Of a stretch of DNA of 64,000 nucleotides, positions 12,333-34,964 are shown piece after piece (position 1 is the stretch's first letter; the number at the start of each line of letters is the position of its first letter). Made by a program: the position numbers and the translations under genes. The DNA comes from an uncultured Fidelibacterota bacterium. Its GTDB lineage: Bacteria; Fidelibacterota; Marinisomatia; Marinisomatales; UBA1611. Where the stretch lies: assembly GCA_913040915.1 (NCBI GenBank), contig CAJWHW010000002.1, positions 22,129-86,128 of the forward strand. Reading direction: 5' to 3'. The notes beneath the pieces are model-generated. The model searched no databases. It saw nothing but the letters and a program-made list of their open reading frames with translations, and had not been told where the DNA came from.

Positions 12333-12364
12333 AACCCCGACTTTAAATGTCGGGGTTGTCGTTT
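12333..12364 (+). terminator. rho-independent terminator after the TerB-like gene
   Basis: 9-bp stem AACCCCGAC/GTCGGGGTT with the 7-nt loop TTTAAAT, followed by the T-rich GTCGTTT. Confidence 0.65.
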
Positions 12365-12384
12365 AGTTGAAGGAGTATTAAAAC

Positions 12385-12570: not shown

Positions 12571-12588
12571 TAAAAAGACAATTATTTT

Positions 12589-15735: not shown

Positions 15736-16535
15736 AATTTTAATTTTAATACCTTTTTAATTTTTCCTAAGTCAACTTGTTTAGAAATATTTTGTTTAAA
15801 CCATATATCACAAGATGCCAAACCCTGGGCAATGAACATATCTAAACCAATTACGGTTTTAACTTTAACCTCAATACCTTTTTTAAGCCATTTTGTTTGA
15901 AGAGGGTTGTAAATAGTTTCAACCAGTATATTTTTTTTGCAAAAATTAACACTCGGAATTGATTTAATATCTGGCCACATACCAATTGGAGTGCAGTTTA
16001 TGATTATTTGGTAATGATGCGGCTTGTTTAATTGTTGAACTTGTGTTGTATGTATAGTAGATATTTTTTTTATCCATTTGACAAGGTTCTTTGCTCTTTC
16101 AATAGTACGGTTAACAATTGTTATTGATTTTACTTTTTCCATAATCAGGGCATAAGCTACTGCCCGTGCTGCACCCCCAGCACCAAGGAGCACACAATTT
16201 TGTTCATTTAAATCAATACCATTGATTTCCATGGCTCTGGAAAATCCAATCCAATCAGTATTATAGCCCGTAGAGTTATCTACGCAATTGACAGCACCAA
16301 TGATTTGGGCGGCATCATCCAATCTATCCAAGAAAGGAATAATGGATTCCTTGTGTGGCAGGGTGACATTGAAACCATTTAATTGGTTTGAATTTATAAA
16401 TAAGTCCATTGAATTATCTTCTACCTGAATTTTTTCATATTCAGCTTTAATATTTAATTGTTTATATATTTCGTGATGTAACGTTGTACTCAAACTATGA
16501 GCGATAGGGTCACCAATAACTGCAAATCGTTTCAT
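15729..16535 (-). CDS. aroE: shikimate 5-dehydrogenase
   Basis: 268 aa. It contains VIGDPIAHSLS, FNVTLPHKE and LLGAGGAARAV. Confidence 0.92.
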   Translation of the reverse strand: MKRFAVIGDPIAHSLSTTLHHEIYKQLNIKAEYEKIQVEDNSMDLFINSNQLNGFNVTLPHKESIIPFLDRLDDAAQIIGAVNCVDNSTGYNTDWIGFSRAMEINGIDLNEQNCVLLGAGGAARAVAYALIMEKVKSITIVNRTIERAKNLVKWIKKISTIHTTQVQQLNKPHHYQIIINCTPIGMWPDIKSIPSVNFCKKNILVETIYNPLQTKWLKKGIEVKVKTVIGLDMFIAQGLASCDIWFKQNISKQVDLGKIKKVLKLKLC

Positions 16536-19112: not shown

Positions 19113-19836
19113 TTTTTAATTTCTCCATACGATTATCTAAAGATTCCATTGCCAGTTTGACATTTTTTATCATGTCTTTTGTATAGGGGTTATAAAGTTG
19201 CAGATCTGTATATAATTCCCACGTATCGTTACAGGTTTGATCTACTAAGTCCAGTAGGTCGCGAAACCCTTGAGTGTCAATAACAGTTTTACTGATACCA
19301 TATTCCTTTAGCATTCTACCAAGAAAATGTGTTACTCCCTGAGTTTTAGCGGCCAGTTTATCATGTTGATCTGGAGACATTTCCATAACTTGGATTCCTT
19401 GATCAGTGAAAAATTGTTTCCAGAAAGAAAATTGGTTATGGTGATCTCGAGTATTGTCCATCATCATTTTTAGGCGATTATTCGAAAAATATGAATCGGG
19501 TCCAAACATGGGGTGGGTAGCAATGATACTTACCTGTTCCGGAAGTATCTTTTTCATGACTTCAGTAGGATATTTTTTCACTGAACATACATCAATTACT
19601 AAGGCTTGTTCAGAAAGCTTTGAAGCAATATTCTGGATCACGGATTCAAAGTGCCTTATCGGAACTGCAATGAAAATTACCTCTTCCTTTAAAACAGTGG
19701 TTAAGTCAGCAATTTCCACTCCGGTGAATGTATGAGGAGGGGTCAGGTCGTATGTTTTAATAGCGAACCCTTTTTGTAAAATATTGGCTAGAACTTTTCC
19801 AAATCTGCCAAAACCTATTAATCCTACACTTTTCAT
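19099..19836 (-). CDS. tyrA: prephenate/arogenate dehydrogenase
   Basis: 245 aa. It has the Rossmann motif VGLIGFGRFGKVLA and the HPMFGP motif. No C-terminal ACT domain is present. Confidence 0.85.
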   Translation of the reverse strand: MKSVGLIGFGRFGKVLANILQKGFAIKTYDLTPPHTFTGVEIADLTTVLKEEVIFIAVPIRHFESVIQNIASKLSEQALVIDVCSVKKYPTEVMKKILPEQVSIIATHPMFGPDSYFSNNRLKMMMDNTRDHHNQFSFWKQFFTDQGIQVMEMSPDQHDKLAAKTQGVTHFLGRMLKEYGISKTVIDTQGFRDLLDLVDQTCNDTWELYTDLQLYNPYTKDMIKNVKLAMESLDNRMEKLKNVAT

Positions 19837-20406
19837 TTATTCTCCAAGGTGTTTAACCCCAAGAAATAAGGTCAAATTATGCTTTAGGTCATGAATACTT
19901 TCTTGGAGGATCTCAAGTCCATAAAGGTCTGCGCAAGCTTTATTGGCAATAACACCTGCAGTTGGTGGTAGTTTTCCTTCTGATAACCTTCTTGCTGCTT
20001 CTGCTGTATCATCTTCCTCGATAAGTGGACGTGTCCAAAAATGTTCACTCAGGTAATCTTTACACTGCCGCAGAGCTTGTTGGTGAGAATGGATTTCAGT
20101 CACATCTCCAATATTAGTACCGGTTAATCCTAAAAGATTTTGATTAACAGTGATGTGAAACATTTCTACAATTTCACAGCGATATTTTGCTAAAGCTTCT
20201 ACACTTTCGATCACGACTCCGCCTTGGGCATTTTCCATAGCAAAAACACCATACTCTGTAACACCATTTTCAACACCATGCAGCACAGATTTTGATGAAA
20301 TTTGATAAATAACTTTTGCATCTAAAATTCCGTGGTTTTTTGCAAATTCAGATGCAGCTTCTTCTGAAAAACTTCCTTTTCCGCCTTGTATACCAATAGT
20401 ACTCAT
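19837..20406 (-). CDS. pheA: prephenate dehydratase, catalytic domain only (no ACT domain)
   Basis: 189 aa. It starts IGIQGGKGSFSEEAA and ends 7 residues after an NLTLF (NxTRF-like) motif. tyrA starts at the next base. Confidence 0.85.
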   Translation of the reverse strand: MSTIGIQGGKGSFSEEAASEFAKNHGILDAKVIYQISSKSVLHGVENGVTEYGVFAMENAQGGVVIESVEALAKYRCEIVEMFHITVNQNLLGLTGTNIGDVTEIHSHQQALRQCKDYLSEHFWTRPLIEEDDTAEAARRLSEGKLPPTAGVIANKACADLYGLEILQESIHDLKHNLTLFLGVKHLGE

Positions 20407-21173
20407 AAAATTCCTTTCAGTTCTTTAATAAATTGGTTTGTTTTTGTAATAGGATCATCACAGTTATCCATATTATTAATAATTGCTGATCCTACAACTG
20501 CACCATCCGAATAATTATTAAACCAAACAACATCATCTTTATTACTAATACCAAACCCTACTATAAATGGAGTCGTACTATTTTCACGAACTCTTGTTAA
20601 ATAATTTTTTAAAGCATCCCTTGATATAAGATTATCTCCAGTAATACCTAATATGCTTACTGCATAAATGAGATCTCCTGCTAATATTGAAATGTTTTTA
20701 ATTCGTTCATTAGTTGTATTTGGTGCTACCAACAAGATAGGGGAGATGCCTTTTTCTTTGGCTAACTCACAAAATGACTCGGCCTCATCTAATGGTAAAT
20801 CAGGAAGAATCAAACCATCCACACCTGAAGCAACACAACGATCTAGAAAAATCTCGTGCCCCATTTTTAAGATCGGATTATAATATCCCATCAGGGCTAA
20901 AGGGATGGAAACTTTATTACGTATCTGCGTTGCTTGCTCAAAAATCAAATTTAATGTTATACCATTATCTAAGGCCTGCTGGCTAGATGCTTGAATTATA
21001 GGTCCATCTGCTTGTGGGTCAGAAAATGGAATTCCAATCTCAATCATATCTGCCCCTGCATCAGTGGCAGCACAGACTAACTCTACAGTACTGTCTAAAT
21101 TTGGATATCCTGCTGTTATGAAAGGAATGAGTTTTTTTCGAGGTTCTTTAAATAAAGCTTGAATACCGTTCAT
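20403..21173 (-). CDS. trpA: tryptophan synthase alpha chain
   Basis: 256 aa. It contains [31 protein letters not shown] and GFGIS. Confidence 0.95.
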
Positions 21174-22375
21174 AGTTTTTCTCCTAAGGTTTCAGCAACG
21201 GTATTAACGTCTTTATCACCACGACCAGAAAGGCAGACCAAGACATCTTCATTTGGTTTAATTCCATTATTTGATTGACGTAAATAAGCTATAGCATGAG
21301 CAGTCTCAAGTGCTGGTAGTATACCTTCTTTTTTTGATAACCATTGAAATGCGTCTAATGCTTCCTGGTCTGTGGCAGAGCGGTATTCTATTCTACCTAC
21401 TTCGTTTAAATAACTATGTTCTGGGCCGATGCCAGGATAATCTAGGCCAGCGGAAATGGAATGGGGTAGAATAACCTGCCCATCATTATTTTGAAGTAAA
21501 GTAGAAGCAGCGCCATGCAATACTCCAAATTCTCCTTTATTCATAGTGGCAGCATGTTCTCCAGATTCAAGCCCTTTACCAGCTGCTTCAACTCCAATAA
21601 TCTTTACATCATCTTTCAGAAATGAATAAAATAATCCCATTGCATTTGATCCGCCTCCCACACAGGCAACTAAACGATCTGGTAAAATTTTATCAGATTG
21701 TTGAGAAAATTGTTTTTTTGTCTCCTTCCCAATTATTGATTGAAAGTCTCTTACAAGCATTGGATAAGGATGGGGGCCAACGGTTGAGCCAATTAAATAA
21801 TAGGTGGATTCAACATTAGTTACCCAATCACGGATAGCTTCATTGGTGGCATCCTTTAAAGTCATGCTACCTGAAGACACTGGTCTGACTTCAGCATTAA
21901 GTAATTTCATCCGAAATACATTTAATTTTTGTCTTCGTATGTCTTCTTCGCCCATATAAATAATACATTCTAACCCAAATCGTGCAGCAACCGTAGCGGT
22001 GGCAACGCCATGCTGCCCAGCACCAGTTTCAGCAATAATTCGTTTTTTCCCCATTTGCTTAGCCAATAAGATCTGCCCCAAAGCATTGTTGATTTTATGA
22101 GCTCCGGTATGATTTAGATCTTCTCTCTTTAGCCATATATTAAATTCCAATTCTTTTGAAATACGTTCTGCGAAGTAGAGAGCTGTCTCACGTCCTGAAT
22201 AATGATTAAGTAAATTATTTAACTCATCTTGAAAAAAGCGATCATTTGTTGCCCTAAGATATTGTTTCTCTAATTCTTCTAGAGCTGGAATAAGTGTCTC
22301 GGGTACATACTTTCCACCAAACTTATCAAAATGTCCTCGTTCATCTGGAAGGTTATAATTATCAAATTTTCTCAT
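21170..22375 (-). CDS. trpB: tryptophan synthase beta chain
   Basis: It contains [15 protein letters not shown] and [12 protein letters not shown] prefer the ATG at 22375 ([14 protein letters not shown]). The ORF-track start at 22411 would overlap trpF by 29 nt. Confidence 0.93.
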
Positions 22376-22382
22376 TTTTTTA

Positions 22383-23030
22383 TCATGATTTAAGTAAACC
22401 AGAGAATACATTAAAATTTGTGACAGTATCTCTGATATTTTTAAAAAATAATTTAATTTTTAGGTGATCTTTTATGCCTGGTGATTTTTCTAAACCACTA
22501 TTTAAGTCAATGGCATCAGGTTTCATTAATTTAATTGCCTTCAAAACATTTTCTGAATTAAGTCCGCCAGAAAGGATAATCGGTTTATCTGTTGGATTTA
22601 TAAAAAGTGACCAGTCAAAAGTTTCTCCTGTGCCTCCATATTTATCCTTTGAAAAAGTATCAAATAAAAATGCATCTACATTATAATCATTCATAATTGA
22701 AAAGCTACCTGAATTTCTAATATGAAGTGCTTTTATTACAGGTAATTGAAACTGTTCACAGAATTCCGGTGATTCATCTCCGTGTAATTGAATTATGTTC
22801 AAGGGCACATTTTGGACTGCTTCTAAAATGAATGGCATAGACTGATCAACAAAAACCCCCAGTTTTATTGTTTTATCAGGTAAATGATCTGAAATAAATT
22901 TTGCTTTTTTGATAGTGATAGCACGGGGACTCTTATCATAAAAAATAAATCCAATTGCTGCTGCACCAAATTCTAATGCGCATTGAGCATCTGCAATATT
23001 TGTAATCCCACATACCTTTGTTGCCATCAT
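22383..23030 (-). CDS. trpF: phosphoribosylanthranilate isomerase
   Basis: 215 aa. It contains [19 protein letters not shown] and IQLHGDE. Confidence 0.9.
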
Positions 23031-23788
23031 ACTAATTCTCCCACTAAATCGTCTAAAGCTTTGCCAGGATTTCCAGTTTTCATGAGTGAAGTTCCAACTA
23101 AAACCGCATCATACCCTAAATCATAAACATATTTAAGATCATCGGGAGACTTTATTCCGCTTTCTGCTACTTTTAGAGAAGATCTTGGTAAATAATTTAC
23201 TATCTTTGAAAAATAGGATATATCAGTATTCATTGTTTTTAAATCTCGACAGTTAACACCCACAATTTCTGGTTTAATCTCTCCAATAATTTTTGCATTT
23301 TCATCACTGTGGAATTCTACCAATACATCTAGATTCATTTTATTCCCAATAGCTATTAATTCAGCAATTTTCCTATCATCTAAAGCTTCTGCAATAAGTA
23401 AAAAAGCATCCGCTTTGGCGAAACCTGATTGAATTATTTGACATGGATCAATAATAAAATCCTTACGAAGAATAGGAATAGATACTTCATTCTTTATTGA
23501 TTCTAAAACGTCAATATGTCCGCCGAAAAACTGTTGATCTGTTAATACTGAAATTGCTGAAGCACCTGCTGACTCATAATCCTTAGCAATCTGAATTGGG
23601 TCAGCATTTGGCAGGATTAAGCCTTCACTGGGAGATTTCATTTTAATTTCAGCTATAATCGATAACCTTTGATTTGTAAGAGCATCTTTCAGGCTTAATG
23701 TATGAAATGGTTCAACCCCATTAGCAAAAGGCGGCATGTGCTCTATCTCTTTCTGCTTGATATCTAAAATTTGTTCAAGGATATTCAT
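23027..23788 (-). CDS. trpC: indole-3-glycerol phosphate synthase
   Basis: 253 aa. It contains IIAEIKMKSPS, AISVLTDQQFFGG and LRKDFIIDPCQI. Confidence 0.93.
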   Translation of the reverse strand: MNILEQILDIKQKEIEHMPPFANGVEPFHTLSLKDALTNQRLSIIAEIKMKSPSEGLILPNADPIQIAKDYESAGASAISVLTDQQFFGGHIDVLESIKNEVSIPILRKDFIIDPCQIIQSGFAKADAFLLIAEALDDRKIAELIAIGNKMNLDVLVEFHSDENAKIIGEIKPEIVGVNCRDLKTMNTDISYFSKIVNYLPRSSLKVAESGIKSPDDLKYVYDLGYDAVLVGTSLMKTGNPGKALDDLVGELV

Positions 23789-24780
23789 TTTGTCATTTGT
23801 GATAACACATTTAGTGCCGCACCTGAATCAATAGACTCAGATGCTTTTAATAATCCTTCTTTTAGGGTTTTTGCCTTATTACCTACAACGATCCCAGCAG
23901 CTGCATTAATTAAAACAATATCACGTTTGGGCCCCATTTCACCATTTAAAATGTTTTTAATAATCTTCGCATTTTCTTTTGGGTTGTAACCCATCAGATC
24001 ATCTAAAGAAGCTTGATTTAAACCTAGCTTTCTAGAATCAAATTCGATTGTTGAAACATGCCCACCATTTTGCATTTGGCTGATTTTTGTGGTAGTTGTT
24101 GTAGAGATTTCATCTAAACCATCACGGCCGTGAAAAACCATTACATCTGTAGAACCTAATGCTTTTAATACGTTTGTTTGAACCTCAGTCAAATCAGGAT
24201 GAAAGATGCCCATAGCTTGAGCTTTAACATTTGCAGGATTACACAGGGGACCAAGAATGTTGAAAACTGTTCGTGTGGCTAAAGCAGTTCTTGCTCCAAT
24301 AGCATGTTTCATAGCTGGGTGGTATGCCGGTGCGAACATAAAACCCAATCTATAATTTTCTATATCCTCTAAAAATTTATCTACAGATTTGTCAATAATA
24401 ATTCCTAATTCTTGAAGAACATCGGCCGATCCTGATTTAGATGTCATGGAACGGTTCCCATGTTTTGCAACACGCACACCTGTCCCAGCTACAACAAATG
24501 TTGCTGCAGTGGAGATATTGAATGTACCCGATGCATCACCGCCAGTACCACACATATCAATGGCTGGTGTACTTAGTGGAACTGTAACCATTTTTTCTCT
24601 CATGGCCTTTGCAAAGCCTGTGATTTCATCCACTGTTTCACCTTTAGCCCGAAGCGCTACTAAAAATCCAGAAATTTGTGCATCATTATATTCCCCTGAC
24701 ATAATGGATAGCATTACTCTAAAAGCTTCATCTTTAGAAAGATTTTGTTTATCTAATAATTGTTCTAATATTTGTTTCAT
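23785..24780 (-). CDS. trpD: anthranilate phosphoribosyltransferase
   Basis: 331 aa. It contains DMCGTGGDASGTFNIST, KHGNRSMTSKSGSADVL and NILGPLCNP. Confidence 0.95.
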   Translation of the reverse strand: MKQILEQLLDKQNLSKDEAFRVMLSIMSGEYNDAQISGFLVALRAKGETVDEITGFAKAMREKMVTVPLSTPAIDMCGTGGDASGTFNISTAATFVVAGTGVRVAKHGNRSMTSKSGSADVLQELGIIIDKSVDKFLEDIENYRLGFMFAPAYHPAMKHAIGARTALATRTVFNILGPLCNPANVKAQAMGIFHPDLTEVQTNVLKALGSTDVMVFHGRDGLDEISTTTTTKISQMQNGGHVSTIEFDSRKLGLNQASLDDLMGYNPKENAKIIKNILNGEMGPKRDIVLINAAAGIVVGNKAKTLKEGLLKASESIDSGAALNVLSQMTK

Positions 24781-24834
24781 TGTAAGCTCAAAGACTCTAG
24801 TTATAACTGTAGTTATATTTTTGTTTTAACAAGA

Positions 24835-25404
24835 TCAACATTTTATTGTTAAGAAGTTTTTTATTATTTGTAAACCATTCTCAGTTGCTATGGATTCAGG
24901 ATGAAATTGTAATCCATAGACTGGATCATTTTTGTGTTCTATGGCCATAATTAGGCCATTGTTTAATTCTGCTGTTATTATTAATTCTTTAGGGAGTAAT
25001 TTTTTGTCAGCTACTAATGAATGATAGCGAGTGGCCATAAAAGATCCTGAAAATCCTTTGAATAGAGCAGATCCATTATGTTGAATCTTTGCAGTCTTAC
25101 CATGAACAATCTCCGATGAATGAACTACTGTGCCACCATAAGCAATTGTAATTGCTTGATGGCCAAGACAGACTCCAAGTATAGGAATTTCTTTCCCATA
25201 TTTTTTAATAATATTTACAGAATGACCCGCATTTTCAGGCCTCCCGGGTCCAGGAGAGATGACAATATGAGTTGGATCCCAATGAACAATATCATCCAAT
25301 TCGAATTGATTATTTCGTATCACTTTCACATCTGGATTAAGAACACCGATGTATTGTACCAGATTAAATGTGAAAGAGTCGTAATTATCAATAACTAAGA
25401 TCAT
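24835..25404 (-). CDS. trpG: anthranilate synthase component II (glutamine amidotransferase)
   Basis: 189 aa. It contains MILVIDNYDSFTFNLVQY, GVCLGHQ and LQFHPES. Confidence 0.93.
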   Translation of the reverse strand: MILVIDNYDSFTFNLVQYIGVLNPDVKVIRNNQFELDDIVHWDPTHIVISPGPGRPENAGHSVNIIKKYGKEIPILGVCLGHQAITIAYGGTVVHSSEIVHGKTAKIQHNGSALFKGFSGSFMATRYHSLVADKKLLPKELIITAELNNGLIMAIEHKNDPVYGLQFHPESIATENGLQIIKNFLTIKC

Positions 25405-26885
25405 GCTGCTAATCCATCCTCTGCGAAGTCAATTGCTGACATGATAGCCTTGGCCTTACTTACCGTTTCCTCAAATTCTTTGGTGGGGTCTGAATCATAG
25501 ACAATGCCTGCACCGGACTGAAAATGGACGGATCCATTTTTCATAATCATAGTCCTTATAGCTATACAAGTATTTACATTGCCGGTAAAATCAAAAAACC
25601 CGACAGCACCTGAATAAATATTTCGTCGTTCAGGTTCTAGATCTTTGATTATTTCCATAGCTCGAATTTTGGGAGCACCTGTAACCGTACCAGCAGGGAA
25701 ACCACTCATAAGCGCATCAAATGGATCTTTATGTTCGGCAAGCTTTCCTTTTACATCAGAAACAATATGCATAACGTGGGAATAATTTTCGATTACCATA
25801 TTCTCGGGAATGGTAATTGACCCAAATTCTGAGACACGGCCCACGTCATTTCTGCCCAGATCTAAAAGCATAAGGTGTTCTGCTCTTTCCTTTTCATCAT
25901 TTAATAGTTCGTGCGCTAATTTTTTATCTTCATCAACTGAGTCCCCACGTTTACGCGTGCCTGCAATAGGGCGGATTTCCACATTGCCATCTTCTACTTT
26001 TACTAAGAGTTCAGGTGATGCACCAATAATATCAAAATCATTAATCTTTAAATGGAACATATATGGTGATGGATTAATGTTTCTCAAAGCTCGGTAAAGG
26101 GTTGTAGCCTCTACATCGGTGGCCCTTTCGAACCGCTGACTGAGAACCAGTTGAAAAATATCACCGTTGACAATATACTCTTTAGCTTTAGCCACTGCTT
26201 TCTCAAATTTATTTTGATCAAAATTTGAAATTACTTTACTTTTTTTTACTTGTATTGGCGTCTGATAATCCACATTAGTATGTAGTGATTCGCCAATTAT
26301 ATCTATCTTTGAATGTGCTTTATTAAATTGGAATTCCAAATCTGCTGAATCATCAATATTAACATTTGAGATTACTAATGCAGACCCTTTTAAGTGATCG
26401 AAAGCAATTATGTTTTCAAATAACATAAAGACTGAATCAGGTATATTTAATGCTGAATCTGTGTGAATTGGAATATCTTCGAACCAGGTGATAGTCTCAT
26501 AGCCAAGGTAACCAACTAGTCCACCGGTAAAAGATGGAATCCCGGGAAACTTCATCATTTTATATTGAGATTGAATATCGCGAAGTAAATCTAAAAATGG
26601 TGTTTCCACTTTATTTTTGTTACCATTTTTATAGATAATTGTTTGTCCATTTTTGTGTGTCAATATTTGTTTTGGATTAATTCCTACATAAGAATATCTG
26701 GTATATTGATTCCCTTTTTCTACAGATTCTAGTATGAAAGCATATTTAGCCTTTTGAGATAAATGTATCCATGCTGCCACGGGCGTAAGAAGATCTGCCA
26801 GGATACGTTTATATACAGGTATAGTTCGGTTCCCTTGGGAAACCAAATCTTGAAATTCTTTGTAGGTCAGTTGAGTTTTATCCAT
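25401..26885 (-). CDS. trpE: anthranilate synthase component I
   Basis: It contains LADLLTPVAAW, PSPYMF and GAVGFFDF-GN. I prefer the ATG at 26885 (MDKTQL). The ORF-track TTG at 26894 lies inside the terminator T-tract. Confidence 0.95.
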   Translation of the reverse strand: MDKTQLTYKEFQDLVSQGNRTIPVYKRILADLLTPVAAWIHLSQKAKYAFILESVEKGNQYTRYSYVGINPKQILTHKNGQTIIYKNGNKNKVETPFLDLLRDIQSQYKMMKFPGIPSFTGGLVGYLGYETITWFEDIPIHTDSALNIPDSVFMLFENIIAFDHLKGSALVISNVNIDDSADLEFQFNKAHSKIDIIGESLHTNVDYQTPIQVKKSKVISNFDQNKFEKAVAKAKEYIVNGDIFQLVLSQRFERATDVEATTLYRALRNINPSPYMFHLKINDFDIIGASPELLVKVEDGNVEIRPIAGTRKRGDSVDEDKKLAHELLNDEKERAEHLMLLDLGRNDVGRVSEFGSITIPENMVIENYSHVMHIVSDVKGKLAEHKDPFDALMSGFPAGTVTGAPKIRAMEIIKDLEPERRNIYSGAVGFFDFTGNVNTCIAIRTMIMKNGSVHFQSGAGIVYDSDPTKEFEETVSKAKAIMSAIDFAEDGLAA

Positions 26886-26892
26886 TTTGCGC

Positions 26893-26921
26893 AAAAAAAA
26901 ACCCCGATCATTGCCGGGGTT
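26893..26921 (-). terminator. intrinsic terminator of the aromatic (trp-type) attenuator, 7 nt upstream of the trpE ATG
   Basis: The minus-strand RNA reads AACCCCGG-CAAUGA-UCGGGG followed by U9 (plus-strand A-run 26893-26901). The stem has five G-C pairs and one G-U pair, and the two flanking A residues can pair with the first two U residues. Confidence 0.8.
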
Positions 26922-26955
26922 AAAGTGCAGTCAATATATACAGGTATCCCTGGGA

Positions 26956-27024
26956 CTACGTAACCCCTTTAAGGCTAAAAAACCAATACCAGTTGTAATA
27001 ATTTTCTATGTTTTTGTAATTCAT
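26956..27024 (-). CDS. aromatic-codon leader peptide (22 aa) of the trpE...aroQ operon
   Basis: The minus strand reads ATG AAT TAC AAA AAC ATA GAA AAT TAT TAC AAC TGG TAT TGG TTT TTT AGC CTT AAA GGG GTT ACG TAG, which is MNYKNIENYYNWYWFFSLKGVT. Seven of eight consecutive codons are Tyr, Trp or Phe. Its last codons carry GGGGUUA (26967-26961), which is complementary to the 5' terminator arm UAACCCC (26922-26916). Confidence 0.7.
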   Translation of the reverse strand: MNYKNIENYYNWYWFFSLKGVT

Positions 27025-27064
27025 AGCATCAAATATTAAGGAAAAGTGAGAACTGTATCCAACA

Positions 27065-27337
27065 TTATTTATTTTTTTGAAATTTTTTTGAAATTTTATA
27101 AACAGGATCAAAAATTGAAGCAATATCTTCTTTATTTAGCTTTCCATCCAATTTATTGGCAAGATGCTCTATAATTTCTTTTTCTCGATTTGGATCATGG
27201 ATTTTAATATTATTGGATGCTTTGATTTCACCAATCTGTTTTGAAATAGAAAAACGCTTTAAAAGAAAATCTAATATTTGATTATCTAAATAATCAATTT
27301 TGTCTCGCAGTGAATCAATTTTCTCTTTTGGGTTCAT
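27065..27337 (-). CDS. chorismate mutase, monofunctional AroQ class
   Basis: 90 aa, all-helical. LRDKIDYLDNQILDFLLKRFSISKQIGEIK is typical of an AroQ chorismate mutase. Confidence 0.85.
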   Translation of the reverse strand: MNPKEKIDSLRDKIDYLDNQILDFLLKRFSISKQIGEIKASNNIKIHDPNREKEIIEHLANKLDGKLNKEDIASIFDPVYKISKKFQKNK

Positions 27338-27394
27338 GAATTAAACTACACAAATCATAAATTGGTTAGAAAGTGAAATAATCAAAATATTTAA

Positions 27395-28537
27395 TTAAGT
27401 TTGTTCCAATGCCTGTTTGAGGTCAGCAATAATATCTTTGTGGTTTTCTATCCCCACGGAAATTCGCACTAAACCATCTGTGAGGCCTCGGGCATCTCGT
27501 TCTTTTTTCGGGACATCCGCATGGGTCATGGTAGCAGGGTGAGTGATCATGGTTTCCACAGAACCCAAACTTTCTGCTAACTTTGCCAATTGAACAGAAT
27601 TCATCACAATTTTTGCTGCGGGGATGCCGCCAATTAATTCAAAAGAAATCATACCACTATATCCGGACATTTGTTTTTTGGCAATAGCGTGGCAAGGATG
27701 AGAAGGGAGTCCAGGATATGCTACCCGGAATACTTTAGGATGAGCCTCTAAATATTCCGCTACTGCTTGGGCATTTGAAAAATGCTTTTTCATTCGTATA
27801 TCCAATGTTTTAACACCGAGAATGGTGAGCCAGCAATCAAAGGGCCCGGGAACGGCGCCAATGGTTTTTTGGATGAATTTCAGTTTTTCAAACAAGTCTT
27901 CCCTATTGGTAATTACTACGCCCCCAATCAATTGGTTATGGCCGCTTAAATATTTGGTAGTACTGTGCATCACCAAATCTGCACCGAATTCCATTGGTCG
28001 GAGGAAAACAGGTGTAGCAAAGGTAGAATCCACTCCAAATAAGATATTATGTTTTTTAGCAATTTCACCAACAGCTTCAAGATCTGTGATCTTTAATAAT
28101 GGGTTTGTGGGTGTTTCTATCCAAATTAATTTTGTTTTGGGTTGAATTGCATTTTCAACATTTGTAGGAATGGAAGAATCTACATACGTGAAATGTAAAT
28201 CATAATTCACTAAGATCTGGTTAAAATACCGGGACACGCCACCGTAAACATCATCGGAACAAATGATATGGTCGCCTGCTTTCAACAATTTTAAAACACC
28301 ATCCACAGCGGACATACCACTAGCAAAGGCAATTCCAAATTGTCCTCCATCAAGCTCGGCTAAAATTTCTTCCATAACCTGTCTTGTGGGGTTGGATGAA
28401 CGGGTATAGTCAAATCCTTTATCTTGGCCAACTTCTTCCAAAACGTAAGTGGCTGTTTGGTAGACAGGCGGTAGGATAGACCCAGTAGTAGGATCAGGTT
28501 CTGTACCTGCCTGGACAACTTTTGTATCAAATTTCAT
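27395..28537 (-). CDS. Cys/Met-metabolism PLP enzyme (cystathionine gamma-synthase, beta-lyase or gamma-lyase family)
   Basis: 380 aa. It contains TKVVQAG..PDPTTGSILPPVYQTATY and the lysine motif HSTTKYLSGH. The exact reaction cannot be assigned from sequence alone. Confidence 0.85.
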   Translation of the reverse strand: MKFDTKVVQAGTEPDPTTGSILPPVYQTATYVLEEVGQDKGFDYTRSSNPTRQVMEEILAELDGGQFGIAFASGMSAVDGVLKLLKAGDHIICSDDVYGGVSRYFNQILVNYDLHFTYVDSSIPTNVENAIQPKTKLIWIETPTNPLLKITDLEAVGEIAKKHNILFGVDSTFATPVFLRPMEFGADLVMHSTTKYLSGHNQLIGGVVITNREDLFEKLKFIQKTIGAVPGPFDCWLTILGVKTLDIRMKKHFSNAQAVAEYLEAHPKVFRVAYPGLPSHPCHAIAKKQMSGYSGMISFELIGGIPAAKIVMNSVQLAKLAESLGSVETMITHPATMTHADVPKKERDARGLTDGLVRISVGIENHKDIIADLKQALEQT

Positions 28538-28560
28538 AAAAGATCCTGTGTTCTAATTCA

Positions 28561-29853
28561 TTATTTTGCCAGTAAATATTCCTTTAGGTCAGAAAATTTT
28601 TTGGACATTTTTATGGATTTTTTTTCTTTTTTTATAGTAATCTGCAATGAATCTGGCAGGGATGTTTTAAATCCAGTAATGGGTTCAATCACATCTGCAA
28701 ATTTCCCCGGGTGGGCTGTGGATAAAACAACTCCCGTTGATATTGAATTTGTTTTCTCTCTATATTTTTTTAATCCCAAGACACCAACTGAAGTGTGTGG
28801 ATCAATCAAATAGCCAAATTCATCTTGAATACTTTTAATAGATTCTTTTGTCTCTTCATCAGGGAAGCTCCAACTGGCAATATCCATTTTTACTTGCCTT
28901 ATATTATCGTGAAATAAGTCTATTATTCGATCCAAATTACTGGGCACACCAACATCCATTGCATTAGATATTGTTTGTACAGCATCTTGATGTTGAATTA
29001 TTCCACTGCTTAAAAAGTGTGGGAAAGTATCATTTGCATTTGTGGAAGCTATAAATTTCTCAACTGGAACTCCCATACGGTTTGCGAAAAGCCCCCCGGT
29101 TAAATTCCCAAAGTTTCCACTAGGAATGCTAAATATTATTGGCTTGTATTTACTGCAGTGTTTCCAAGCCCAGGCATAATAAACCGATTGAGGCAATAGT
29201 CTAGCTATATTAATTGAATTAGCAGAACTTAATGATAAACTACTACGCAAATCGATATCTTGAAAAGAAGCTTTAACTAATCGTTGGCAATCATCAAAGG
29301 AGCCATCTATTTCTAAAGCAGTAATATTGCCACCCAAAGTTGTAATTTGTTTTTCCTGAATGGCACTTACTCGATTGGAAGGATAAAGAATAATAACATC
29401 AATGCCATCTACATTAAAAAAACCGTTTGCAACGGCACTTCCAGTATCACCAGATGTAGCTACTAATATCTTTAACCTATCACCATTATTTTCAAGAAAA
29501 TAAGACATCGTTTGAGCCATAAACCGTGCAGCAAAATCCTTGAAGGCGAGTGTCGGCCCGTGAAATAACTCCAATATAGAATCGGTTTTATTTAATTCTT
29601 TAATTTGCATGGGAAAATTAAATGCCAATTCACAAATATCAGTTAATTGAGCATGTGTTAAATCACCTTCTGTGAATGGATAAATCATACCAACAGCTAA
29701 TTCGGGGTAACTAAAATCAGATTTAAAAAAGTCTATCCCTAATTGAGGAATAGTTGCAGGCATATAAAGTCCACCATCCGGCGCTAATCCATGGAACAAT
29801 GCTTCCTTGAATCCGACTGAAATAGCCTTATTATTTGTACTGTAAAAGCGCAA
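28561..29853 (-). CDS. thrC: threonine synthase
   Basis: 430 aa. It contains GLAPDGGLYMP, HGPTLAFKDFA and ATSGDTGSA. Confidence 0.93.
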   Translation of the reverse strand: MRFYSTNNKAISVGFKEALFHGLAPDGGLYMPATIPQLGIDFFKSDFSYPELAVGMIYPFTEGDLTHAQLTDICELAFNFPMQIKELNKTDSILELFHGPTLAFKDFAARFMAQTMSYFLENNGDRLKILVATSGDTGSAVANGFFNVDGIDVIILYPSNRVSAIQEKQITTLGGNITALEIDGSFDDCQRLVKASFQDIDLRSSLSLSSANSINIARLLPQSVYYAWAWKHCSKYKPIIFSIPSGNFGNLTGGLFANRMGVPVEKFIASTNANDTFPHFLSSGIIQHQDAVQTISNAMDVGVPSNLDRIIDLFHDNIRQVKMDIASWSFPDEETKESIKSIQDEFGYLIDPHTSVGVLGLKKYREKTNSISTGVVLSTAHPGKFADVIEPITGFKTSLPDSLQITIKKEKKSIKMSKKFSDLKEYLLAK

Positions 29854-29856
29854 GTA

Positions 29857-30792
29857 TCAGTCCAAAATTTCCGGTGGTTTTGTATGAATTGGTGTACTAT
29901 AAGCAGTACTTTCAAGTCCAGCGTTTTTAAATGTATTCACCATTATTAGTCCTATTTTCTCCGCAGTCTCTATTGAATCTGATAAAGCGAAAATAGCAGG
30001 CCCAGAGCCAGAAATACCGCAGCCGATTGCCCCGGCATCTATTGCGGATTGTCGAACAGATTTGTAACCGGGTATAAGTTCTGCTCGAACAGGTTCAGCA
30101 AAAAGATCCACCATTGAACGGCTCAAAAGATCAAAATCAGATTTATGAAGGCCTAAAGTAAAACCTGCCAAGTTTCCGGCCTGCTCAACTGCAGATTTTA
30201 AAGAAACTCGTTTAGGTAGCATACGCCGTGCGTCAAGAGTATTCACGCTAAAATCAGGTAATACTGCTGTACTGAATAAATTTTTTGGAACTGGTAAATT
30301 CAGAACATCTAAAGGTTCATAACTGCGAATCAGGATGATTCCGCCGAAAAGAGCAGGTGCAATATTATCTGCATGTAATCCACCCGATGCAACTGCTTCT
30401 CCTGCCATACCATGAGCTAACAATTCACTATTTTTGAATGGATTATTCAATAATTCATTTAAACCCACAACAGCTGCAGCTGCACTGGCAGAACTAGAAC
30501 CCAACCCGCTTCCTGGTGGAATACCTTTTTCAATATGAACCTTAAATCCTTGATTACTACCCAAAGTATCAAGAAAAGATAATATAGCTTTACCTGCAGT
30601 ATTATTTTCAGGATTAACAGGGATTGATTCATATTTTATACCCGAAATTGAAATTTCTATTACCGATTTTTCATGTTTTTTAATTGTAACAATATCTCCC
30701 GGTTTTGTAATGGCGTAACCAATACAATCAAAACCGCAAGATACGTTAGCGACTGAAGCCGTTGCTTGGACTCGAATTGAATTATTGAACAT
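29857..30792 (-). CDS. thrB: homoserine kinase
   Basis: It contains the GHMP kinase motif PPGSGLGSSSASAAA. I prefer the ATG at 30792 (MFNNSIRVQATASVANVSCGFD). The ORF-track start at 30876 would run about 95 nt into asd. Confidence 0.9.
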   Translation of the reverse strand: MFNNSIRVQATASVANVSCGFDCIGYAITKPGDIVTIKKHEKSVIEISISGIKYESIPVNPENNTAGKAILSFLDTLGSNQGFKVHIEKGIPPGSGLGSSSASAAAAVVGLNELLNNPFKNSELLAHGMAGEAVASGGLHADNIAPALFGGIILIRSYEPLDVLNLPVPKNLFSTAVLPDFSVNTLDARRMLPKRVSLKSAVEQAGNLAGFTLGLHKSDFDLLSRSMVDLFAEPVRAELIPGYKSVRQSAIDAGAIGCGISGSGPAIFALSDSIETAEKIGLIMVNTFKNAGLESTAYSTPIHTKPPEILD

Positions 30793-31888
30793 GGATATAT
30801 CCTTTTTGAACAAGTAGTTCTGCCATAAGAATGGCACCACCAGCGGCACCTCGAACTGTATTGTGCGACAATCCAATAAATCGAATATTAAAAAACATAT
30901 CCTCTGTTATTCGCCCAACTGTTACAGTCATGCCATTTCCCAAATCTCGATCTAATTTAGGTTGGGGACGATCTATTTCATCCAAAACAATAATAGGAAT
31001 TTTTGGGGCTGATGGGAAATGCATAGCTTGTGGTTCTCCTATAAATGAAGATAAAATTAATTTGAACTCATCTATAGTAGGGGCAATATCAACAAATCCA
31101 ATATGTACTACAGCAGTATGTCCATCTATTACTGGTACACGTGTACATACTGCATTTATAGCTAATCCCTTGAATTGCTCAATACCGCTTTCCGTTACTT
31201 CACCAAATATTTTTAATGGTTCTTTTTCTGTCTTTTCTTCTTCTCCACCAATATAGGGTACAACATTATCTTTTAAATCTGGATTGGTTAATGCTTTATA
31301 GCCAGCACCTGACAATGCTTGAAGGGTGGTCACTTGTACGCGATCCACCGGAAACCCTGCTTGTTTTAATGCTTCTAAAACAATAATATATGATTGAATT
31401 GAACAATTAGGTTTAACTGCTACAAAACCAGAGTTTGGTAAATTTCGAATCATCTGTTGGATAGGAATCACCTCTGCATGATGAGGATTTATTTCAGGAA
31501 TGATCATAGGTACATCACGGGTTTGACGATTAGCAGAACTAGTGGAAATAACAGCGTATCCTTTTTTTGCATACCCAAATTCAAAATCACGTGTATCCTG
31601 TTTTTTTTGTAAGTCTAACGCAGAAAATACACAGACTACATCCTCAGGTATTGATTCAAAATCATTCACATCCCGAACAATCAAGTTAGCAATTGAATCA
31701 GGAATCTGTGTATCTATAGCCCATTTCTCACTAGTTGCTTCCCTGTAAGTTTTTCCGGAAGAATGCTTGGATGCAGCAACGTCTATAACGTCAAACCATG
31801 GGTGGTTTTCCAATAATTTTAAGAAGTTTTGACCGACCATTCCAGTAGCACCTAAAACACTTACTTTAATATTTTTTTTTAGTAACAT
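30782..31888 (-). CDS. asd: aspartate-semialdehyde dehydrogenase
   Basis: 368 aa. It contains VLGATGMVGQ and the active-site region KPNCSIQ. It overlaps the thrA stop by 10 nt. Confidence 0.9.
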   Translation of the reverse strand: MLLKKNIKVSVLGATGMVGQNFLKLLENHPWFDVIDVAASKHSSGKTYREATSEKWAIDTQIPDSIANLIVRDVNDFESIPEDVVCVFSALDLQKKQDTRDFEFGYAKKGYAVISTSSANRQTRDVPMIIPEINPHHAEVIPIQQMIRNLPNSGFVAVKPNCSIQSYIIVLEALKQAGFPVDRVQVTTLQALSGAGYKALTNPDLKDNVVPYIGGEEEKTEKEPLKIFGEVTESGIEQFKGLAINAVCTRVPVIDGHTAVVHIGFVDIAPTIDEFKLILSSFIGEPQAMHFPSAPKIPIIVLDEIDRPQPKLDRDLGNGMTVTVGRITEDMFFNIRFIGLSHNTVRGAAGGAILMAELLVQKGYIHVQ

Positions 31889-34263
31889 TTTAAAATATCT
31901 CCTAATACACCAGCAGCAGTGACTTCAGCTCCGGCACCATGTCCTTTTATAACCATGGGGGTATCTTTATATCTTTTAGTCGTAAACATAATAAAGTTTT
32001 CACGTCCATTTTGATGATAAAAAGGGTTTTTAATTCCCACTGCTTTCAATTTCACTGTTACATTTTGCCCATCCCAGGTGGCAATATATCGTAACGCCTT
32101 ATCCTCTCTAGAAGCTGAAATATACATGTTTAAAAATTGGTCATCATATTTGGATAATTGCTCTAAAAACTCATCAATGGAAAATGCCGGATCCATATTT
32201 TCTGGAATTAAGCTTTGAATAGATACATCATCAAACTCTAATTGTGCACCAGTCTCTCGGGCCAAAATGAGAATTTTTCTTCCCACATCCACACCATTCA
32301 AGTCATCTCTTGGGTCTGGTTCTGTGTACCCGTTTTCCTGTGCATATTTTACCAACTTACTAAATGCAATTGAACCATCAAATCGACTGAATAAATAGCT
32401 TAGCGTCCCAGACATAATTCCTTCAATTTTTTCAACTGTATCACCTGTTGCCAATAAAGTTTGTAATGTTTCAACAATAGGGAGACCTGCGCCAACATTT
32501 GTTTCATATTTAAATTGAGAACCGGCAGCATTTGAATTTTCACGAATTAAATCATAATAATTCTGATTCATGGAATTGGCCAGTTTGCTAGCAGATACAA
32601 CAGAAATTCCTTTTTTTAAAATGTTTGCTATTTTTTTTGCGATTATAGGTGATGATGTTACATCCACAAATACGGGGTTAAGAGACTGAGCTGCATAAGA
32701 AATAAATGATTCTAAATCGACTGTATCACCACTTGCTAATTCTTCTACATAATTTTGGGAATCTAATCCATTTGGATTAATAATCATTTTTTGACTATTT
32801 ATTATACCGCATATATTTATGGAATTATTATCCTGAATTAACTTTATTAAATCTGAGCCAACCAACCCAACCCCAGCAATAAATACATTTATAATAGCAT
32901 TGTTTGAAAAAATATATTGATGCAAAGATCGAATGGCTGATTTGACTTCATCATTTTTAATAATAAAGGATATATTTCTTTCCGAAGATCCTTGAGCAAT
33001 AGCAACCACATTCACATTTTTTTCTCCAAGAACGGAAAATAGTTTCCCGGAAATTCCAGGTGTATGGCGCATCCCCTCGCCTACAACAGCAATGAGAGAA
33101 AGATCATTTTCAATATTAATAGTATCTATAAAATGGTTTTTCAGTTCAAACAAAAATTCTTTCTTCAAAAGTGATTCAGCTAGATCAACTTCTTTAGGTT
33201 GGATAGCAAAACAAATGGAATGCTCGCTAAACACTTGAGATACAAGAATAATATTTATTTTCTTTTTGGCTAGTGCATCAAATACACGTCCAATAACTCC
33301 AAAACGTCCCACCATACCGGCTCCTTGGAATCGGATTAAGGAAACATTATACAAAGATGAGATACCCACGGCAAAATGGTCATCCCTTGCACGGTCCTGT
33401 GTAATAGCCGTTCCTGGATTATCCGGTTCAAATGTATTTTTAATACGGATCGGAATAGATTTATATAAAGCAGGAATCATAGTGGGTGGGAAAATAACTT
33501 TTGCCCCGGCATGAGCCAATTCCATGGCTTCTTCATAAGTAATATGAGAAATGGTTTTTGCATCAAAAACCACATTGGGATCGGCAGACAAAATACCGTT
33601 TACATCAGTCCAGATTTCTATTTCATTTACATCTAAAGCAGCGCCAAAAATGGATGCGGTATAGTCTGAACCGCTCCTTCCAAAAGTTGTTGTTTCTCCT
33701 AATTCAGTGGCACCAATGAATCCAGTAATTATCCTTGTTTTTGATTCATCTTTCCATTCATTACGAATATTATTGTAAGATTTTTGATAATGAACAAATG
33801 CATTTCCGAAATGATCATCTGTTAAAATAACCTTTCGCGCATCCAAATATGTTGCATTTATTCCTTTTTCGATACATACTTCCGTAATAATTATTGCAGA
33901 TAATTGCTCACCAATACTTAGTGCTGCATCTTTTAATTGCAGTGTACATTTTTTCTTTTTGGCAATTGTACTTAATATAAGACATAATTCATTTTCTATT
34001 TCTTGGATAGTATTAAACAATAGTTCTTTTTCAAGATGAAGATCATGAATAGTTTTCCGATGCCTATCAAAAAACAATTGTAAATCATTATTATAATCAG
34101 CGTCCCGTTCTGCACATGAGATTAATTGAATGAGTTGATCCGTAATGCCACCAAACGCAGATACAACTACACCACATGGATGTTCAGATGAAATAAGCTG
34201 CACCACTTGCTCAATTCGTTGGGACGTTTTTACGGATGATCCGCCAAATTTGAGAATTTTCAT
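31879..34263 (-). CDS. thrA: bifunctional aspartokinase / homoserine dehydrogenase
   Basis: 794 aa. The N-terminus MKILKFGGSSV is an amino-acid kinase. Central ACT-like repeats are followed by a C-terminal homoserine dehydrogenase (GAGLPIVETL, TEPDPRDDLNG-DV). Confidence 0.93.
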   Translation of the reverse strand: MKILKFGGSSVKTSQRIEQVVQLISSEHPCGVVVSAFGGITDQLIQLISCAERDADYNNDLQLFFDRHRKTIHDLHLEKELLFNTIQEIENELCLILSTIAKKKKCTLQLKDAALSIGEQLSAIIITEVCIEKGINATYLDARKVILTDDHFGNAFVHYQKSYNNIRNEWKDESKTRIITGFIGATELGETTTFGRSGSDYTASIFGAALDVNEIEIWTDVNGILSADPNVVFDAKTISHITYEEAMELAHAGAKVIFPPTMIPALYKSIPIRIKNTFEPDNPGTAITQDRARDDHFAVGISSLYNVSLIRFQGAGMVGRFGVIGRVFDALAKKKINIILVSQVFSEHSICFAIQPKEVDLAESLLKKEFLFELKNHFIDTINIENDLSLIAVVGEGMRHTPGISGKLFSVLGEKNVNVVAIAQGSSERNISFIIKNDEVKSAIRSLHQYIFSNNAIINVFIAGVGLVGSDLIKLIQDNNSINICGIINSQKMIINPNGLDSQNYVEELASGDTVDLESFISYAAQSLNPVFVDVTSSPIIAKKIANILKKGISVVSASKLANSMNQNYYDLIRENSNAAGSQFKYETNVGAGLPIVETLQTLLATGDTVEKIEGIMSGTLSYLFSRFDGSIAFSKLVKYAQENGYTEPDPRDDLNGVDVGRKILILARETGAQLEFDDVSIQSLIPENMDPAFSIDEFLEQLSKYDDQFLNMYISASREDKALRYIATWDGQNVTVKLKAVGIKNPFYHQNGRENFIMFTTKRYKDTPMVIKGHGAGAEVTAAGVLGDILKCY

Positions 34264-34517: not shown

Positions 34518-34657
34518 AGATATTTTTCCTTATTTTGTGTTATTTATTGGTTTGTTACTAATATTTATGAATTAGTTATTCATAATAAATACAAAACGTA
34601 ATTGATAGCTTGTTGGGATAATATGTTAGAGGGCAAGAGACATTACAGCAGTATCTG

Positions 34658-34770
34658 TCTTATCAGTCTTCTAAAAAACTCGAAGCAGGAATTAGCACCT
34701 TGAACCGCATTGTACGGAGATGGTTGCTAAGGTATCTTAGGGCCTGATCCCTCCACCTTTCTGGATAAAA
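34658..34770 (-). promoter_or_regulatory. SAM-I (S-box) riboswitch
   Basis: The minus strand reads UUUUAUCCAGAAAGGUGGAGGGAUCAGGCCCUAAGAUACCUUAGCAACCAUCUCCGUACAAUGCGGUUCAAGGUGCUAAUUCCUGCUUCGAGUUUUUUAGAAGACUGAUAAGA. It matches the S-box core elements AUC-AGA-GG-GGAGGGA--GGCCC--GA--CC--GCAACC...AAGGUGCUAAUUCC-GC...GAUAAG. The P1 halves UUAUC(C)AG and CUGAUAA pair with each other. Confidence 0.85.
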
Positions 34771-34964
34771 TCCGGTACTGATCTGTCAAAAAGCATAAAA
34801 AACTTCTTTTAAATGTTAAATATGAAAATAAAATAATGCAAGATAACATTAATATATTTAACTATACTCCATCATTTTCTATAATTTTTTTATAAATAAA
34901 AGGAATATGATTTATATTTGAATGTTGCCCTTTATAAGAATTTGTTATAAACTTTTAGCCAATT

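Follow-up and report, generated by a model that had tools for sequence, protein, structure and literature searches.

The stretch of DNA analysed here (the window) is 64,000 nucleotides (nt) long and belongs to contig CAJWHW010000002.1 of an uncultured Fidelibacterota bacterium; the coordinates of all elements are positions in it. An operon of 16 genes runs along its minus strand, comprising trpE, G, D, C, F, B and A, pheA, tyrA, a gene for a class II DAHP synthase, and aroA, E, C, K, B and Q, and it is preceded on the same strand by a short open reading frame (ORF) and an intrinsic terminator (Table 1). We consider it likely that the latter two are parts of a ribosome-mediated attenuator with Trp, Tyr and Phe codons side by side in its leader, and that this attenuator gates the whole aromatic operon. 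The start and stop codons of the operon genes overlap or abut, except for one gap of 54 nt between trpG and trpD, in which a stable structure was sought and none was found, as elsewhere in the operon; the gene order is the same in relatives as far as their contigs reach.

Table 1. Features of the leader, the operon and their surroundings, with positions in the 64,000-nt window
Feature	Position	Strand	Remarks
Leader ORF	27024-26956	-	ATG 27024-27022; 22 sense codons, MNYKNIENYYNWYWFFSLKGVT; stop TAG 26958-26956
Regulatory codon block, codons 9-16	27000-26977	-	YYNWYWFF; 7 of 8 codons aromatic (2 Trp, 3 Tyr, 2 Phe)
Segment A (Trp-Tyr-Trp codons)	26995-26982	-	CAACUGGUAUUGGU; 5' strand of candidate 1:2-type helix
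Segment A'	26945-26932	-	ACCUGUAUAUAUUG; 3' partner of A; overlaps the inner stem
Segment B (codons 20-22)	26967-26961	-	GGGGUUA; 5' strand of predicted antiterminator outer stem; exact complement of 26922-26916
Segment B'	26922-26916	-	UAACCCC; 3' strand of outer stem; shares bases with the terminator 5' arm
Middle stem of predicted antiterminator	26959-26954 : 26932-26927	-	GUAGUC:GACUGC; stop codon UAG inside the 5' strand
Inner stem of predicted antiterminator	26952-26949 : 26944-26941	-	CAGG:CCUG; enclosed by the middle stem
Intrinsic terminator	26921-26893	-	5' arm AACCCCGG 26921-26914; loop CAAUGA; 3' arm UCGGGGUU 26907-26900; U9 26901-26893
Operon, trpE to aroQ	26885-12589	-	16 genes (NCBIfam, Pfam)
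pheA, prephenate dehydratase (PDT)	19837-20406	-	189 amino acids (aa); PDT catalytic domain alone, no ACT domain
tyrA, prephenate dehydrogenase	19099-19836	-	short, 245 aa
Candidate -10 box	27038-27033	-	TAATAT; 8 nt upstream of the leader ATG
Candidate -35 box	27062-27057	-	TTGGAT; just past the chorismate mutase stop codon (27067-27065)
Chorismate mutase (CM_2)	27337-27065	-	90 aa; directly upstream of the leader, outside attenuator control
Aspartate-semialdehyde dehydrogenase	30782-31888	-	followed by thrB, thrC and a cystathionine gamma-synthase-like gene
Bifunctional aspartokinase/homoserine dehydrogenase	31879-34263	-	with ACT domains; first in the run after the riboswitch
S-adenosylmethionine (SAM) riboswitch	34657-34771	-	73.8 bits; precedes the minus-strand run 27395-34263

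The aromatic density of the leader exceeds chance and is not an effect of composition. When all six frames of the window were examined, seven aromatic codons out of eight were found in 3 of the 79,385 stop-free windows of eight codons, and two of these consist of poly-Phe and overlap each other in an antisense frame, so that the leader block is the sole one to mix Trp, Tyr and Phe. The ORF has no Shine-Dalgarno sequence; this is no objection to its translation, because a motif of that kind precedes only 15 of the 39 long ORFs of the window. In the public gene calls the leader ORF is never annotated. Public trpE models often begin upstream of the gene, running through the terminator and part of the leader (503-520 aa; e.g. 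P0018 and P0121), and other extended trpE calls are found in L028 (10001-11563) and in L141-L143 (822-1000).

The terminator is an 8-bp GC-rich hairpin followed by U9, and GCGCAAA (7 nt) is all that separates it from the trpE ATG at 26885. It came out as the top-ranked terminator-like site of the region 12000-31000 in a pattern scan, and its hairpin has a calculated energy of -11.6 kcal/mol in the window and of -12 to -14 kcal/mol in relatives. These readings bear out an earlier note on this DNA, made from the letters alone, which had described the leader ORF at 27024-26956 with seven aromatic codons out of eight in YYNWYWFF, the terminator with U9 at 26921-26893 ending 7 nt before the trpE ATG and, downstream, trpEGDCFBA, pheA, tyrA, DAHP synthase and the shikimate genes: the ORF was found again by direct reading of the minus strand, the terminator by reading and by the scan, and the genes by NCBIfam and Pfam. 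A scan for a terminator accompanied by a biased small ORF revealed no other attenuator-like leader in the window, and no transfer RNA (tRNA) or transfer-messenger RNA gene was found in its 64 kb.

Conservation of the leader

A scan for TrpE, in which one genome was kept per species, gave 24 loci with a TrpE identity of 74-81%; the named genomes among them are all Candidatus Marinimicrobia or Neomarinimicrobiota (SAR406), and the window too derives from a genome of this group. In each of the 24 a small ORF is found at the same place, with 22 codons, the same TAG stop and aromatic codons at 9-16, and the typical peptide is MNNMNTKNYYSWYWFFSREGVL. The U-run ends 62-64 nt beyond the stop codon in the genome loci, except for the divergent L021 with 57 nt. 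A different peptide, MIHQLIEKIWGFYFYFSYGGLL, which still mixes Trp, Tyr and Phe, is encoded in L021/L028, the genome that diverges most. Metagenome contigs were scanned with a pattern anchored solely 3' of codon 19 (GGGGTTNNNTAGTC...GACT...CCCC), codons 1-19 being left unconstrained. All 59 matches accompanied by a terminator U-run have an aromatic-rich leader; those without a terminator are chance matches, except for a few true leaders cut at contig ends. The combined set amounts to 85 leaders (65 distinct DNA sequences, 51 distinct peptides). The results on conservation given here and below cover one compact SAR406 clade: the matches listed in TrpE protein searches with three queries (the window, L021 and P0136) all belong to it, with at least 71% identity.

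The earlier note had advised comparing the regions upstream of trpE in relatives. The ORF is present in all 85 loci, in the same frame and with the same stop (22 codons in nearly all, 19-21 in a few), which disposes of the objection that it might be missing from relatives. Among the 45 distinct ORFs of 22 codons, an aromatic residue stands at codons 12 and 14 in all 45, at each of codons 9, 13 and 16 in 44, at codon 15 in 43 and at codon 10 in 38, while any other codon is aromatic in at most 5. The most invariant are the Trp codons 12 and 14, with TGG in 44 of the 45. Synonymous changes are common (TAT/TAC, TTT/TTC, AGC/AGT, AAT/AAC), and exchanges between Tyr and Phe are favoured over other single-base changes. 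Conservation that is specific to codons, together with the synonymous pairs and the Tyr/Phe exchanges, thus points to a translated ORF selected for codon identity. Outside the block, codon 5 is Asn in 39 of 45 ORFs (as the synonyms AAT and AAC), codon 6 is Thr in 38, and Gly20-Val21 is near-invariant. One relative of much higher GC content (L029) keeps the promoter boxes, a W-Y-W-Y-F block and the helices described below, but has lost the inner stem of the antiterminator.

The distance between the U-run and the trpE ATG is 7-8 nt in most loci, and about 41-47 nt in L029 (3620-3660) and L030 (9954-10000). In L001 some 83 nt lie between the two, including a stub like the 5' end of trpE (ATGGATCAATTAGCC..., ending in TAA) and extra sequence; this spacer looks like a small duplication or insertion.

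Alternative structures and the position of the ribosome

The terminator is present in all 85 loci, with 92.9% of cells paired in an alignment of 21 sequences (A1), from which, and not from the enlarged set of 65, the figures for helix A:A' below are also taken. The earlier note had drawn attention to the exact complementarity between GGGGUUA (26967-26961) and UAACCCC (26922-26916). This pairing is confirmed and conserved, with 91-94% of cells paired in 21 and in 65 sequences, and it proves to be the outer tier of a longer predicted antiterminator, in which a middle and an inner stem follow. Since UAACCCC has bases in common with the 5' arm of the terminator, antiterminator and terminator are mutually exclusive. 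For the three tiers together, 93.8% of cells are paired in the 21 sequences, against 30-45% in slid controls; in the set of 65 the middle stem is paired to 98.5%, the outer to 93.8% and the inner to 90%. One pair of the middle stem alternates between GC (11 sequences) and AU (8 sequences) in the 21, and in the 65 the same pair is GC in 36, AU in 23 and GU in 3, its neighbour being UG in 36 and UA in 28.

A further helix, joining segments A and A', was proposed by RNAalifold without guidance, and could play the part of the classical 1:2 element. Its cells are paired to 93.5%, as compared with 17-55% in slid controls, and some of the synonymous changes are compensated. The duplex reaches -12 to -17 kcal/mol in most relatives, -5.7 in the window and about 0 in L021, where it is absent; it is kept in L029, the relative without the inner stem. 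Before UAACCCC is made, the median difference between A:A' and the middle hairpin is 0.6 kcal/mol, and afterwards A:A' loses by about 9 kcal/mol; it would therefore be at most a kinetic brake. Another candidate for the 1:2 element, the local hairpin UAGCCUU:GGGGUUA (AGCC:GGUU), was rejected, as it is paired to 63% and shows no covariation.

Nascent transcripts extending up to the terminator loop were folded with a ribosome mask, an assumed footprint that takes in 15 nt on the 5' side and 12 nt on the 3' side of the first P-site nucleotide. When one of codons 9-16 occupies the A site, 5-8 bases of the terminator 5' arm pair with the 3' end of the ORF; at codon 17 one base fewer pairs, and from codon 18 to the stop only 0-2 do so. 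This holds for all 24 distinct sequences examined. The switch thus falls between codons 16-17 and codon 18, and the last aromatic codon is the last stall position that would still permit the antiterminator. The mask folding agrees with the earlier note, according to which a ribosome at the end of the leader masks the antiterminator strand and one stalled at the Trp, Tyr or Phe codons does not. That note had also recommended folding 26880-27064 in search of alternative structures: equilibrium folding turned out to be uninformative, and it is solely in the folding of nascent, truncated transcripts that the position of the ribosome discriminates between antiterminator and terminator. In the window the modelled switch would essentially amount to termination when the ribosome stands at the end of the ORF.

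Deletion of the trp genes and the leader Trp codons

The trpEGDCFBA block is deleted in 15 loci, and leader and terminator now stand before pheA. The junctions fall into nine classes, several of which recur in independent metagenomes and are therefore not assembly artefacts. Both leader Trp codons are present in classes a (L027/L063/L133) and b (L082), which retain a trpE stub and a trpA remnant, in class c (L069), with a trpE stub and a pheA fragment, and in classes e (L091) and f (L114), where the junction is clean. One is left in class d (L072/L105; trpE 5' stub and trpA remnant; TGG to GGG) and in class g (L088; no remnant; TGG to TTG). None is left in classes h (L034/L037/L104; TTG and CGG) and i (L036/L130; a 20-codon ORF, M[KN]YDNILYYFSGFFSHEGVL), neither of which has a gene remnant. 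Where trpE is intact or cut off by the contig end, 42 distinct leaders were counted: 41 carry two or more Trp codons, the L021 type carries a single one, and none is devoid of them. Loss of Trp codons thus concerns 4 of 9 trp-deleted classes versus 1 of 42 (p=0.002 in a Fisher test, which ignores the tree), or 3 of 7 when possibly related events are merged (p=0.007); loss of both concerns 2 of 9 classes versus 0 of 42 (p=0.03).

In all the trp-deleted leaders the ORF is still there, with five or six Tyr and Phe codons, and so are terminator and antiterminator. The substitutions in the Trp codons hit bases that are unpaired in A:A', and the duplex stays at about -12 kcal/mol. A tendency of the Trp codons to disappear along with the trp genes, the Tyr and Phe codons being kept, is what the idea of a leader matched to the content of its operon predicts. 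Our reading of these sequences is that loss of the trp genes relaxes selection on the Trp codons, which would then decay over time, and that the leader left with Tyr and Phe codons would go on regulating pheA, tyrA and the aro genes; the gene remnants in classes a to c fit with recent deletions. Unless they carry trp genes at another place in the genome, the trp-deleted lineages may be auxotrophic for Trp.

Promoter and upstream context

Upstream of the ORF, no stretch is better conserved than the candidate -10 block. Of 64 sequences, 52 have TAATAT here and 11 have TAATTT; in 58 of them the block is separated from codon 1 by exactly 8 nt, and it is kept in L029. A TTGnnn motif lies 17-18 nt upstream of it in 46 of 64 distinct relatives, and its T and G are invariant in alignment A1. 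This arrangement suggests a dedicated promoter and a leaderless or near-leaderless mRNA for the leader peptide. One leader of the 65, that of L069, is the sole one to lack the conserved -10 box; in this locus a trpE stub (aa 1-89) is fused to an internal fragment of pheA, and the whole operon may be decaying in that lineage.

The chorismate mutase gene precedes the leader in 77 of 85 loci, and the gene before it varies: metB in the window, a peptidase gene in L028 and a divergently transcribed regulator gene in L030. A terminator was looked for in the window between metB, the chorismate mutase gene and the leader and none was found, so that read-through transcripts would meet the same attenuator. 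The thr/met operon under SAM control thus continues into the chorismate mutase gene and the aromatic leader with no intervening terminator. On the plus strand, antisense to the start of the leader (27014-27081), there is a sub-threshold match to FopS, a small RNA of Bacteroidetes (22.1 bits versus 56, E=0.26), which is most likely due to chance.

Proposed mechanism

Transcription would probably begin a few nt before the leader ATG, from the TTG-N17/18-TAATAT promoter, with read-through from the chorismate mutase gene as a possible alternative entry, and a ribosome would translate the 22-codon leader while RNA polymerase advances. With charged tRNAs available for Trp, Tyr and Phe alike, the ribosome would advance to codons 18-23 and the stop, where it would cover GGGGUUA together with the strand GUAGUC. 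This would let the terminator (AACCCCGG/UCGGGGUU and U9) fold, and transcription would stop 7 nt before trpE. Should any one of the charged tRNAs be scarce, the ribosome would stall in codons 9-16 and leave GGGGUUA free, the three-tier antiterminator would capture the 5' arm of the terminator before the 3' arm is made, and the polymerase would read into trpE and on to aroQ. With no stalled ribosome present, A:A' may, in most relatives and weakly in the window, take the part of the 1:2 anti-antiterminator of the classical design. We infer the response to each individual amino acid, the promoter with its near-leaderless start and the kinetic competition between the structures.

The earlier note had proposed a single attenuator that integrates the charging of three tRNAs, and this proposal is supported by the conservation, the covariation, the mask folding and the pattern of trp deletions. 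Judging from the sequences and the folding models, we have little doubt that the leader element acts as an attenuator. Trp is highly likely to be one of its inputs, and it is probable that Tyr and/or Phe are inputs as well; as to whether Tyr and Phe are each sensed separately, the chances appear even. A bolder proposal, which we hold to be possible rather than probable, is that of a modular three-input OR gate, to which inputs are added or from which they are dropped in evolution to match the content of the operon, the Trp codons decaying after deletion of the trp genes. As part of the same proposal, the attenuator may be the main or sole regulator of the aromatic pathway in the streamlined SAR406, with their PheA devoid of an ACT domain, and the terminated leader RNA of about 130 nt, produced abundantly in this view, and the conserved 22-residue peptide could have trans-acting roles, by analogy with rnTrpL/peTrpL in Sinorhizobium.

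The regulatory codons of 26977-27000 (UGG, UAU/UAC, UUU) all start with U. The tRNAs for such codons form the class that carries modifications of the i6A37 type (MiaA), and the attenuator would consequently also report on the modification status of tRNA, an effect described for the trp and phe attenuators of other bacteria.

Comparison with known attenuators

To our knowledge, leader-peptide attenuation has been studied almost wholly in Proteobacteria and Actinobacteria, where each aromatic leader senses a single amino acid. The closest model in design is E. coli trpL (RF00513), which likewise has a short ORF with Trp codons, a terminator right before trpE and a stalled ribosome that frees the antiterminator; there too the antiterminator is the less stable of the two structures, and kinetics decide between them. 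The SAR406 leader differs from it by its codons (2 Trp, 2-4 Tyr and 1-3 Phe) and by the 16 genes downstream, which include those of the Phe, Tyr and shikimate pathways. Moreover, the 5' strand of its antiterminator is made of the last three sense codons, with the stop codon inside the antiterminator, the 1:2 helix is weak in the window, and the mRNA is probably near-leaderless, without a Shine-Dalgarno sequence. The Phe-codon run and the terminator before a Phe-pathway gene also recall E. coli pheL (RF01859) and the pheST leader, but these serve Phe only (pheM having a single Tyr) and one or two genes, and pheL has no Rfam match here. That one leader peptide may respond to several end products, a shortage of any of which derepresses, is known from the enterobacterial ilvGMEDA leader (Leu/Val/Ile) and thr leader (Thr/Ile); these belong to the branched-chain and aspartate families and not to the aromatic one, and SAR406 adds evolutionary evidence of a dropped Trp input. 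In the aromatic supraoperon of B. subtilis, trpEDCFBA is embedded and a terminator/antiterminator switch lies before trpE, where the TRAP protein binds free Trp. TRAP senses Trp only, whereas the sensor in SAR406 would be the translating ribosome, with codons for three amino acids.

Searches of Rfam gave no match at the gathering score for the leader, either in the window or in 10 relatives. Trp_leader (RF00513) scored 20.7 bits, as against a gathering score of 41 (E=0.053), mostly from the terminator, and had no match in the 10 relatives; Bacteroid-trp (RF01692), Phe_leader (RF01859) and T-box (RF00230) were absent from the 20 Rfam matches at E<=10 in 26850-27120. The Bacteroid-trp motif (Weinberg et al. 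2010, PMC2864571), a cis-regulatory element upstream of trp genes, occurs in the superphylum to which SAR406 also belongs (the FCB group) and is restricted to Bacteroidetes, and the SAR406 leader does not match it even at E<=10. The sole mixed aromatic attenuator that we found in the literature is the aroR leader of C. glutamicum (Phe-Tyr-Phe), upstream of aroF, which according to the account given in PMC11802643 of the work of Neshat et al. (2014) responds to limitation for Phe and not for Tyr. It resembles the SAR406 leader in having mixed aromatic codons before a DAHP synthase operon, and differs from it, as far as that account goes, in that it has no Trp codons, that the trp genes are under their own trpL and that it belongs to another phylum; the analogy that can be drawn is a functional one. 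A full-text search for attenuators of Marinimicrobia, for a leader peptide of an aromatic supraoperon or for a Trp/Tyr/Phe leader found none, few of the comparative papers in subscription journals being covered. What is new is therefore the Trp/Tyr/Phe leader before an aromatic supraoperon, unannotated and outside Rfam; leader-peptide attenuation itself is known.

Points against the proposal and alternative explanations

Several observations weigh against the three-amino-acid attenuator as proposed above. The Tyr codon of aroR, which in the account cited gives no response to Tyr, indicates that the presence of a codon does not prove sensing. TTT and TAT are AT-rich codons, favoured at a GC content of 36%. 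Five of the nine trp-deleted classes keep both Trp codons, and the deletion events are few and phylogenetically related. No lineage among the loci examined has lost pheA or tyrA alone, so that the Tyr and Phe inputs are inseparable here. On the side of the structures, the footprint of the ribosome was an assumption, and the 1:2-type helix, at -5.7 kcal/mol, is weak in the window. The minimum free energy (MFE) structure of the full-length leader at equilibrium contains the terminator at every position of the ribosome, which makes antitermination depend on an assumed kinetic window, as in the E. coli trp operon, and the MFE of the whole region (26880-27064) is ordinary when compared to shuffled sequences (z = -0.58). 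Finally, a nascent transcript that is not translated would default to the antiterminator, unlike in the classical design.

Some of these points would suit an attenuator that senses Trp alone, through its two Trp codons, the Tyr and Phe codons being passengers of AT bias or of RNA structure: the Trp codons are the most invariant of all, TAT and TTT are what a genome of this composition would favour, aroR, in the account cited, shows a Tyr codon without a Tyr response, and part of the aromatic block lies inside helix A:A'. We nevertheless regard this explanation as unlikely. Leaders that have lost both Trp codons still have, ahead of pheA, tyrA and the aro genes, an intact ORF with five or six Tyr and Phe codons as well as terminator and antiterminator, which means that an attenuator with solely Tyr and Phe codons persists. 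Four codons that are not part of A:A' (9, 10, 15 and 16) are nonetheless aromatic in 38-44 of the 45 ORFs, with Tyr/Phe exchanges favoured; the block persists in L029 in spite of its higher GC content, and its density, as mentioned above, occurs in just 3 of 79,385 windows in the same genome. A different matter is whether the nascent peptide senses a free ligand by an arrest of the TnaC kind, or whether the peptide or the terminated RNA functions by itself. Dual-function trp leaders do exist in Sinorhizobium (rnTrpL/peTrpL), and the conserved non-aromatic residues (Asn5, Thr6 and Gly20-Val21) might be read in that sense. However, Gly20-Val21 is accounted for by segment B of the RNA switch and the A-rich N-terminal codons fit an unstructured 5' end, an arrest induced by the ligand would have the wrong sign, inducing biosynthesis when the amino acid is abundant, and the loss of Trp codons after trp deletion is most simply explained by sensing at the level of codons; we hold this alternative to be very improbable.

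One could also imagine that a protein or a ligand binds to the conserved hairpins which follow the stop codon and precede the terminator, as in a riboswitch, a T-box or a TRAP-like system acting on the same terminator, to which the ORF would be irrelevant. This is hard to credit: no Rfam family, T-box included, reaches its threshold in the window or in 10 relatives, the leader region has no arrays of (G/U)AG triplets, and a non-coding aptamer would not be expected to keep an ORF of constant length, to vary without disturbing its frame or to be conserved codon by codon. The earlier note had itself raised the alternative that the hairpin is the plain terminator of the chorismate mutase gene, with a separate promoter for trpE, and had remarked that 7 nt leave almost no space for one; we find that explanation, also when extended to the thr/met operon and with a fortuitous ORF, practically untenable. 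The hairpin is, admittedly, the first terminator that transcripts of metB and chorismate mutase would meet. But a promoter could not fit into the 7-8 nt that separate U-run and trpE ATG in most loci, and the conserved promoter-like boxes are found ahead of the leader instead of behind the terminator. In addition, 85 loci keep the ORF with its aromatic block as well as the complementary strand, and they do so with covariation.

Significance

Few uncultured groups of bacteria are as abundant in the dark ocean as SAR406, and in these bacteria one leader would gate a complete aromatic pathway of 16 genes. With its catalytic domain alone, PheA may lack allosteric feedback by Phe, in which case the attenuator would be more important. 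The repeated deletions of the trp genes, together with the loss of Trp codons, provide a rare evolutionary readout and suggest that individual classes of codons are under separate selection, which makes the idea of several inputs directly testable with reporters. In the sea itself, read-through at the attenuator, as seen in metatranscriptomes, could indicate limitation for aromatic amino acids in situ.

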